From Candidatus Magasanikiibacteriota bacterium (GTDB taxonomy: Bacteria; Patescibacteriota; Patescibacteriia; Magasanikbacterales; GWA2-37-8), in assembly GCA_026396515.1 (NCBI GenBank), contig JAPLWQ010000003.1, positions 357,569 through 393,986 of the forward strand: a DNA stretch of 36,418 bases, given 5' to 3'. Below the pieces are notes generated by a model that was not told the origin of the DNA, did no database searches, and saw only the letters and a program-made list of their open reading frames with translations. Below, piece by piece: positions 6,860 through 7,245 of the stretch. The translations under genes were made by a program, and so were the position numbers. Every line of letters begins with the position of its first letter. The first letter of the stretch is position 1.

Positions 6860-6897
6860 AAAAAAAACGGGCGTCCACCAACACAGGATGGACGCCC
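6860..6897 (-). terminator. Rho-independent terminator of the unassigned structured RNA
   Basis: The minus strand reads GGGCGUCCA-(11-nt loop)-UGGACGCCC, a 9-bp stem (6897-6889 pairing with 6877-6869), then G and U8 (6867-6860). Confidence 0.8.
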
Positions 6898-7210
6898 TAG
6901 AAAGGACCGGTTCTCGTTTAGCCTCGGATGCGTGCAGCCGGTTTATCGGATGCGGTGCACCCAACTTTTGGAATGTGGCTCCAGAAGAAGACATCTGCCG
7001 GCTTTTCTTCTGCGACTATTTTGCGCATAGTCGATGGCACACCCTATTACCCGGACGAAGGCAACGCGCGCAAGCTTGACACCTCCTCCGTTTTGGCTGT
7101 TCCCCATCCCAGTCGCGTTCTGGGATATTCACTGTTCGCCACCCTCCAGCTAGGCGGCAGCTTACGAGGCAGTGCCCCAGGGAATCTCGTTTGGTTTCTT
7201 CAAGAACCGT
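6860..7210 (-). ncRNA. Unclassified GC-rich structured RNA, ~350 nt, a stand-alone transcription unit
   Basis: There is no credible ORF on the minus strand. It has its own promoter (7245-7217) and terminator (6897-6860). Two nested long-range helices: 7201-7209 with 6908-6916 (CGGUUCUUG/CGAGAACCG) and 7165-7170 with 6921-6926 (GCCUCG/CGAGGC). Local hairpins lie at 7106-7126, 7023-7043 and 6982-7022. It is GC-rich relative to the AT-rich flanks. Confidence 0.55.
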
Positions 7211-7216
7211 TTTGAT

Positions 7217-7245
7217 AAGCTACATTTTATTAAAAAAATAGTCAA
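7217..7245 (-). promoter_or_regulatory. Candidate sigma70 promoter TTGACT-N17-TAGCTT for the structured RNA
   Basis: The minus strand reads TTGACTatttttttaataaaatgTAGCTT. The -35 box is at 7245-7240 and the -10 box at 7222-7217. The -10 box keeps the invariant T1, A2 and T6. Confidence 0.45.

Follow-up and report, generated by a model that had tools for sequence, protein, structure and literature searches.

Small RNA (sRNA) genes that are specific to a lineage, end at a Rho-independent terminator, and lie beside tRNA genes or island remnants are a known kind of bacterial element, with the prophage- or island-borne sRNAs of enterobacteria as examples, and the ROOL and GOLLD RNAs are also often found near tRNA genes. 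As for the Patescibacteria, also called Candidate Phyla Radiation (CPR), these bacteria are uncultured and, to our knowledge, almost nothing is known of their non-coding RNA biology. Here, we describe a candidate non-coding RNA gene in a 36,418-nt stretch of DNA, hereafter the window, from a Candidatus Magasanikiibacteriota bacterium (GenBank assembly GCA_026396515.1, contig JAPLWQ010000003.1, positions 357,569 to 393,986 of the forward strand). That the source belongs to the Patescibacteria is also seen in its PBP2, whose nearest named homologs are in Candidatus Magasanikbacteria and in metagenome-assembled genomes of the "Patescibacteria group", with 53–68% identity. The candidate unit is located on the minus strand of the spacer between the AMMECR1 gene and a tRNA-Glu(CUC) gene (6796-7349). 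We estimate at about 50% the probability that this region represents a non-coding RNA gene specific to its lineage, brought in by insertion at a rearrangement hot spot at tRNA-Glu. Should the region be transcribed, its product would rank among the very few candidate regulatory RNAs of a Patescibacteria genome.

The case for a transcription unit rests most strongly on an intact, one-directional intrinsic terminator in a place where no gene ends. This terminator (6860-6897, minus strand) was identified in the terminator scan as a perfectly formed 11-bp stem with eight G-C pairs and a 7-nt loop (6897-6869), followed by a G and eight U residues (GTTTTTTTT), and is hence stronger than the 9-bp stem that the original prediction had reported here. 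It works in one direction because TAGAAAGG follows the copy on the plus strand. Each of the remaining strong terminators in the vicinity closes a unit, namely ORF145, tRNA-Glu, or AMMECR1. Because AMMECR1 (7350-7895, plus strand; Pfam PF01871, E = 2.5e-57) is divergent, the 350-nt region is the only minus-strand sequence upstream of the candidate's terminator. The tRNA-Glu gene (6795-6723, minus strand), in turn, has its own perfect promoter, TTGACA-17-TATAAT with a TG, at 6838-6810, so that the tRNA unit (6723-6838) and the candidate RNA are separate units.

A plausible promoter of weak-to-moderate strength can be read directly from the sequence about 350 nt upstream of the terminator. This putative sigma-70-type promoter (7217-7245, minus strand) consists of TTGACT (7245-7240), a 17-nt spacer ending in TG, and TAGCTT (7222-7217), with five of six consensus positions in the -35 hexamer and three of six (T, A, and the final T) in the -10 hexamer. 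Because only the three most conserved positions are kept in the -10 hexamer, which scored below the threshold used, our consensus promoter scan did not report this TTGACT-N17-TAGCTT sequence; both hexamers stand where the original prediction had placed them, and the -10 element is weak. If functional, transcription would start near 7210 and would end at the terminator at 6897-6860, generating a transcript of ~340–350 nt whose two ends can pair to enclose several hairpins. The overall picture of a stand-alone, minus-strand unit that is devoid of open reading frames (ORFs) and closed by a strong terminator agrees with how the region looks.

The body of the predicted transcript (6898-7210, minus strand; ~313 nt) carries no credible ORF. 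Its GC content is 55.8%, compared to 30–44% in the other spacers of the window, and the spacer that holds it is the longest in the window and the sole one with a 150-nt stretch exceeding 60% GC. Genes of this genome fall into two classes, core genes with 41–47% GC and a GC-rich set with 55–62% GC, in which GC at the third codon position (GC3) reaches 71–83%. Unlike in the GC-rich genes, the GC of the body is evenly spread over the codon positions in every frame, and a codon model trained on those genes yields negative log-odds in all six frames, less than for any in-frame window. Neither strand of the region contains an ORF with a Pfam or NCBIfam match. These results agree with the statement of the original prediction that no credible ORF is present.

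We consider it quite improbable that the transcript is a small mRNA, whose coding sequence would be a 38-codon, Cys/Arg-rich ORF (7132-7016, minus strand), an 8-codon mini-ORF, or a 95-codon ORF on the plus strand (6928-7215; ORF95). Shine-Dalgarno-like sequences at workable spacing do speak for such an mRNA, as the 38-codon ORF has a GUG start 10 nt after a GGAGG, and the frame of ORF95 scores +0.084 in a dicodon model built on all genes, a borderline value between the two distributions, as it exceeds 95% of windows in the wrong frame and falls in the low tail of those that are coding. Against it are the lack of GC3 periodicity and of protein families, and the negative scores of all six frames described above. 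ORF95, although the longest ORF, is equalled or exceeded in 9% of dinucleotide shuffles, has no ribosome-binding site and no promoter, and runs against the terminator, and no gene is placed in the region by the Logan gene calls. The ORF95 translation was also searched to catch ORFs called over homologous RNA genes. No homolog was found among 5.8 billion clusters, and the single match among 1.84 billion representatives, P0243 (3,587 residues), was rejected as an artefact in which a match of 11 of 27 residues is counted anew in each of 24 identical FN3 repeats. We consider translation of the short ORFs preceded by Shine-Dalgarno-like sequences unlikely. As to the mini-ORF, a perfect Shine-Dalgarno-like GGAGGAGGUG (7089-7080, minus strand) precedes by 6 nt a UUG at 7073 that opens the eight codons of MRALPSSG, and this mini-ORF (7044-7089 region) ends in a tandem UAA UAG inside a string, GGGUAAUAGGG, that is reminiscent of RNase P. 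A separate observation concerns P0243, which in addition to its 24 identical FN3 repeats carries a long TARQPDSP repeat and scored E = 1.7e-36 against a 95-residue random ORF; as one weak match can be multiplied across repeats, whole-sequence E-values for repeat proteins call for caution.

With regard to folding, the two ends of the body can pair as originally predicted, with CGGUUCUUG (7201-7209) facing CGAGAACCG (6908-6916) in a 9-bp terminal helix that contains one G-U pair and is found in both the minimum free energy (MFE) and the centroid structures. In 3.6% of shuffles, the 30 nt at one end likewise join those at the other in a contiguous 9-bp helix. The nested 6-bp helix of that prediction, GCCUCG (7165-7170) with CGAGGC (6926-6921), could also be drawn. 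Among the three hairpins that had been listed, the one given as 7106-7126 holds (AUCCCAG AACGCGA CUGGGAU, 7105-7127, with a 7–8-bp stem), while the one given as 7023-7043 is really CGACUAU GCGCAAA AUAGUCG at 7013-7033, and the one given as 6982-7022 is really GAAGAA...UUCUUC, with an internal loop, at 6984-7010. The predicted fold also includes a hairpin with a 9-bp stem and three G-U pairs (6945-6965). A further hairpin with an 8-bp stem, UGCCGCCU / GGGUGGCG (7137-7159), is not in the MFE structure and would belong to an alternative fold.

The full unit, terminator included, folds with z = -2.73, much of which comes from the terminator. Folding is more favorable for the minus strand (-133.8 kcal/mol) than for the plus strand (-122.6 kcal/mol; z = -2.73 versus -2.13), consistent with transcription in the direction proposed. 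In the body, five distinct hairpins with stems of 7 bp or more are predicted, versus 1.24 ± 1.13 in shuffles (p ~0.01). Also present is the complementarity between CUGCCG (7160-7155) and CGGCAG (7000-6995) that had been proposed as a possible pseudoknot, but by our own estimate about ten such 6-bp pairs are expected by chance in 308 nt, which makes it uninformative. Altogether, these predictions provide mixed evidence that the fold exceeds chance.

The element does not belong to any RNA family that we could recognize, as already suspected. A search of Rfam 15 at gathering score returned only the neighbouring tRNA-Glu, and at E ≤ 10, with either 701 nt or 317 nt as the query, only noise was added (weev_FSE, on the terminator, isrK, sR60, GNAS-AS1_1, and MESTIT1_3, with 11–21 bits, far below gathering). 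There was no covariance-model match to 6S, SRP, raiA, ROOL, GOLLD, HEARO, OLE, T-box, or any other Rfam 15 family. In a previous study, however, 10 of 35 circular CPR genomes required the RF00010 threshold to be lowered to 5 bits for their RNase P RNA (PMC8172020). Because such diverged RNAs have been reported in CPR, we tested RNase P directly, against a comparison set of 28 distinct genuine type-A genes selected by their CR-I motif, AGGAAAGUCCGGGC.

The original prediction had, in fact, offered a divergent housekeeping RNA as one of two explanations for this region, and had pointed to fragments recalling RNase P, which would be the most plausible identity of such an RNA. Besides the escape of RNase P RNA from Rfam thresholds in some CPR genomes, this explanation is favored by two strings, GUCCGGG..AUAGGG..GUGCC (7056-7036) and AAACCGGCU (6944-6936), that resemble the P4/J5-7/P7 and P4' strands of genuine genes, and by a four-way junction like P7/P8/P9/P10 that can be drawn in our own reading of the sequence. 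Like type-A RNase P RNA (RF00010), moreover, the candidate has the same size class, paired ends, the motifs GUCCGGG, AUAGGG, GUGCC, and AACCGGCU, and a tRNA neighbour. Yet no RNase P family was hit at gathering score or at E ≤ 10 with 701 nt or even 317 nt, and a profile hidden Markov model (HMM) of the 28 genes, run with all filters off, produced no alignment in the candidate, its best score over 2 kb being -4.8 bits inside AMMECR1. The 6- to 9-mers shared with RNase P genes are at the level of dinucleotide shuffles (p = 0.2–1.0). Where the universal J3/4-P4 sequence of CR-I would read GGAAAGUCCGG, the candidate reads CCUUCGUCCGGG (7061-7050), so that GUCC is preceded by CCUUC and not by the universal GGAAAG. 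From one P4-like strand to the other the span is 121 nt, versus 232–317 nt in the 28 genuine genes, and the helix partner of the 5' region (6926-6921) comes after the P4'-like strand and not before it, contrary to the RNase P order P1-P2-P3-P4 ... P15-P18-P2'-P4'-P1'. In the test for P4/CR-V (ACAGAA.CCGGCUUA), positions 7056-7051 could form five pairs, with a bulged U, with 6941-6937, but these compete with the 9-bp MFE hairpin, and in the MFE structure a stable hairpin sequesters the 5' strand that resembles P4. Also unlike type-A RNase P RNA, the candidate lacks a P15-P18 region as well as the topology of a P2-type pseudoknot. The strings are real, and their resemblance to RNase P is at chance level. 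Furthermore, the same motif arrangement was found in no other genome or metagenome contig scanned, and relatives with the same gene order have no copy at the corresponding site, while an essential RNA would not be expected to be architecturally unique to one species. On these grounds, a highly diverged housekeeping RNA is very unlikely.

A second look-alike is the 12-mer AAAAUAGUCGCA, which we take to recall the resume-codon region of the E. coli tmRNA. ARAGORN found no tmRNA in the region but only tRNA-Glu, and Rfam gave no tmRNA match. Unlike tmRNA, the candidate has no tRNA-like domain (T-arm, acceptor/CCA end), and the frame that follows GCA ends in ...AARIRG and not in an ALAA-type tag, so that this resemblance did not survive the analysis either. 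In this sense the useful results of our work are mostly negative, as the RNase P and tmRNA look-alike motifs proved to be at chance level.

Relatives of the locus were gathered via AMMECR1 and PBP homologs. The closest of them, L002 and L004, share the order ORF77/ORF150, tRNA-Glu, AMMECR1, MurF, PBP2, radical SAM, and P-type ATPase. The candidate RNA is absent from the equivalent site in L002-L006 and L022-L025, and nhmmer matched only contigs identical to the window; in L004 the site is cleanly empty, while in further relatives AMMECR1 is preceded by an SH3-domain gene and a large spacer is missing. The tRNA-Glu(CUC) sequence itself is identical in the window and in the relatives, but in the window this tRNA and its promoter are inverted with respect to L002, L004, L005, and L006, where the tRNA is on the same strand as AMMECR1. 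In L002 (ENA ERZ25039527 contig_18216, 5735-5962), tRNA-Glu is followed, after ~190 nt, by a second, perfect copy of the 19 nt at its 3' end, in direct orientation (ATTCCCGTACGGGCTACAA, 5735-5753 and 5944-5962), with an inverted, internally deleted copy of tRNA-Glu at ~5802-5833. Such an arrangement looks like the signature of a past integration and inversion at tRNA-Glu, with the element subsequently lost or inverted. The locus shows that tRNA-Glu is an integration and inversion hot spot in this lineage, and the RNA gene that we propose would sit in DNA inserted there together with the inversion of tRNA-Glu. A second GC-rich segment of the window, at 8132-9638 between AMMECR1 and MurF, carries ORF165 and an SPFH/Band_7 gene (60% GC, GC3 ~83%) and is probably a horizontally acquired cassette; in L002, L004, and L022-L025, AMMECR1 is directly beside MurF. 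Viral contigs, examined for signs of a mobile donor, contained no relative of the Band_7 gene or of ORF145.

These same observations bear on the possibility that the region is inert leftover DNA, a non-functional remnant of sequence acquired horizontally or rearranged at the tRNA-Glu hot spot. In such a case, the terminator would be a relic, or would shield the tRNA-Glu promoter from upstream transcription, and the promoter hexamers would be fortuitous in an AT-rich spacer. The absence of the region from all relatives that share the gene order, the inverted tRNA-Glu, the scar of ~190 nt with its 19-nt direct repeat and inverted tRNA copy at the same site in L002, the other GC-rich insertion of the window, equally absent from relatives, a body no more structured than chance, and a weak -10 hexamer would all be accounted for. 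A decaying gene fragment, however, should have kept codon periodicity or a protein match, and neither is seen. A tblastn search for decayed copies of the genes that neighbour the site in relatives (SH3, ORF77, ORF150, and the large repeat protein) gave no match in 6860-7216. Similarity of the candidate to tRNA-Glu or to the L002 scar is at shuffle level, and within the window the segment is not flanked by a convincing target-site duplication, by repeats derived from the tRNA, or by terminal inverted repeats. Also difficult to reconcile with inert DNA are the intact and perfectly formed terminator and the expectation that a streamlined genome with short, AT-rich spacers would shed 350 nt of useless GC-rich DNA. 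We regard the inert-remnant explanation as the main rival, with a smaller but appreciable share of the probability.

Two further observations were made around the site. The sole candidate for a flanking repeat is an AT-rich, 15-nt inverted repeat (6680-6694 / 7293-7307, 13 of 15 positions complementary) that brackets both tRNA-Glu and the candidate RNA, and that could be a mark of the inversion or a chance occurrence in AT-rich spacers. In addition, of two Logan contigs from SRR20698648 at the locus, one stops at 6772, inside the tRNA, and the other starts at 6903, just before the terminator; the 130 nt left unassembled (6773-6902) may reflect a second tRNA-Glu copy acting as a repeat, or a polymorphism in the population.

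Homologs of the candidate were also sought more widely. A blastn search of phages and plasmids yielded none, a search of viral contigs with five exact 17-27-mers gave no match, and there is no paralog within the window. The genome collection (185,579 species) and the metagenome collection were each scanned once with the pattern GTCCGGG-N1-5-ATAGGG-N80-110-AACCGGCT, and the resulting 15 and 35 matches were all chance occurrences in unrelated taxa and genes; since this pattern was built on the RNase P-like motifs that later proved uninformative, the two scans exclude RNAs with that motif layout and not homologs in general. RNAduplex, used for target prediction on the 24 translation-start regions of the window, returned energies within the range of shuffles and was thus uninformative.

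The other explanation put forward in the original prediction was a new class of RNA. The candidate might be the first member of a class of structured RNAs of ~320 nt from Magasanikbacteria-like Patescibacteria, stable, closed, and with multiple helices, which would have a role in the cell and be either linked to tRNA or carried by a mobile element, but we view this as unlikely. Relatives would then have been missed because both large scans employed one motif pattern of chance resemblance. With one sequence, no homolog, and no covariation, in fact, a class cannot be claimed. More generally, because the look-alike motifs are at chance level and the element is not conserved at the site in relatives that keep the gene order, it should be ranked neither among divergent housekeeping RNAs nor as a new class unless expression data or homologs come to light.

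The interpretation that we favor, a lineage-specific non-coding RNA gene inserted at the tRNA-Glu hot spot, is supported by the placement of the terminator, the distance between promoter and terminator, the composition, the strand asymmetry, the lack of a protein family, and structural hints, namely the terminal helix (p ~0.04) and the enrichment in hairpins over shuffles (p ~0.01). Among the generic features of sRNA genes, the candidate has a 3' intrinsic terminator and no protein-coding capacity, and conservation in relatives is missing at the equivalent site in L002-L006 and L022-L025. Several results weigh against our interpretation. The body alone (7210-6903) has z = -1.58, with seven of 100 shuffles folding as well, and hence is not significantly more stable than shuffled sequence, which undermines the description of this RNA as structured. 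A count of five hairpins is also reached in 8.6% of the 308-nt windows taken from coding sequence of this genome, and the -10 hexamer is weak. Parts of the window are matched with 100% identity by three Logan contigs, which derive from two sequencing runs, and only L001 reaches into the RNA; because all contigs carrying parts of the locus are identical, and no AMMECR1 identity falls between 74% and 100%, they represent effectively one population. Finally, no homolog was found in any collection searched, the two large scans having relied on a single motif pattern. If our interpretation is correct, the predicted RNA would be transcribed and stable, and we infer that it would act in trans, as a regulatory or protein-binding RNA and not as a catalytic housekeeping one; nothing points to catalysis. 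We believe that the region is a reasonable candidate for an orphan RNA and not an established structured RNA family.

Other genes of the window also deserve mention. A conserved pair of small genes at 5957-6626 (55–56% GC) encodes 75 and 145 residues, the longer product with a CECGKC motif; their homologs in L002 share 53% and 43% identity, respectively, and neither gene has a Pfam or NCBIfam match. A 1,057-residue, secreted-looking protein (2511-5684, minus strand) is made of internally repeated modules of ~100 residues and belongs to no Pfam family, and homologs from relatives align to it at several offsets. Three weak Disintegrin-domain matches, unusual for a Patescibacteria genome, were seen in a gene with 62% GC at 34166-36142 (minus strand). 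What looks like a spacer of 380 nt (21044-21423) is occupied by a Ribosomal_S30AE (hibernation factor) gene of 117 residues, according to the gene calls on L181, a Logan contig identical to the window here.

When compared to known systems, the candidate shares with ROOL (RF03087), GOLLD (RF01998), raiA, OLE, and HEARO the appearance of a GC-rich, non-coding unit. It is smaller than ROOL and GOLLD, however, and has no Rfam match at E ≤ 10 to any of the five. Those families, moreover, owe their definition to hundreds of members that covary, and the candidate has no homologs. At ~340 nt, it is also longer than most base-pairing sRNAs, and its host belongs to the Patescibacteria, for which we know of no established sRNA biology. 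The closest likeness, based on general knowledge of such elements, is to the sRNA genes found beside tRNAs and in genomic islands, with which the candidate shares a stand-alone location in a spacer, a putative promoter, a strong terminator, the lack of an ORF, a tRNA-linked insertion hot spot, and a narrow taxonomic range.

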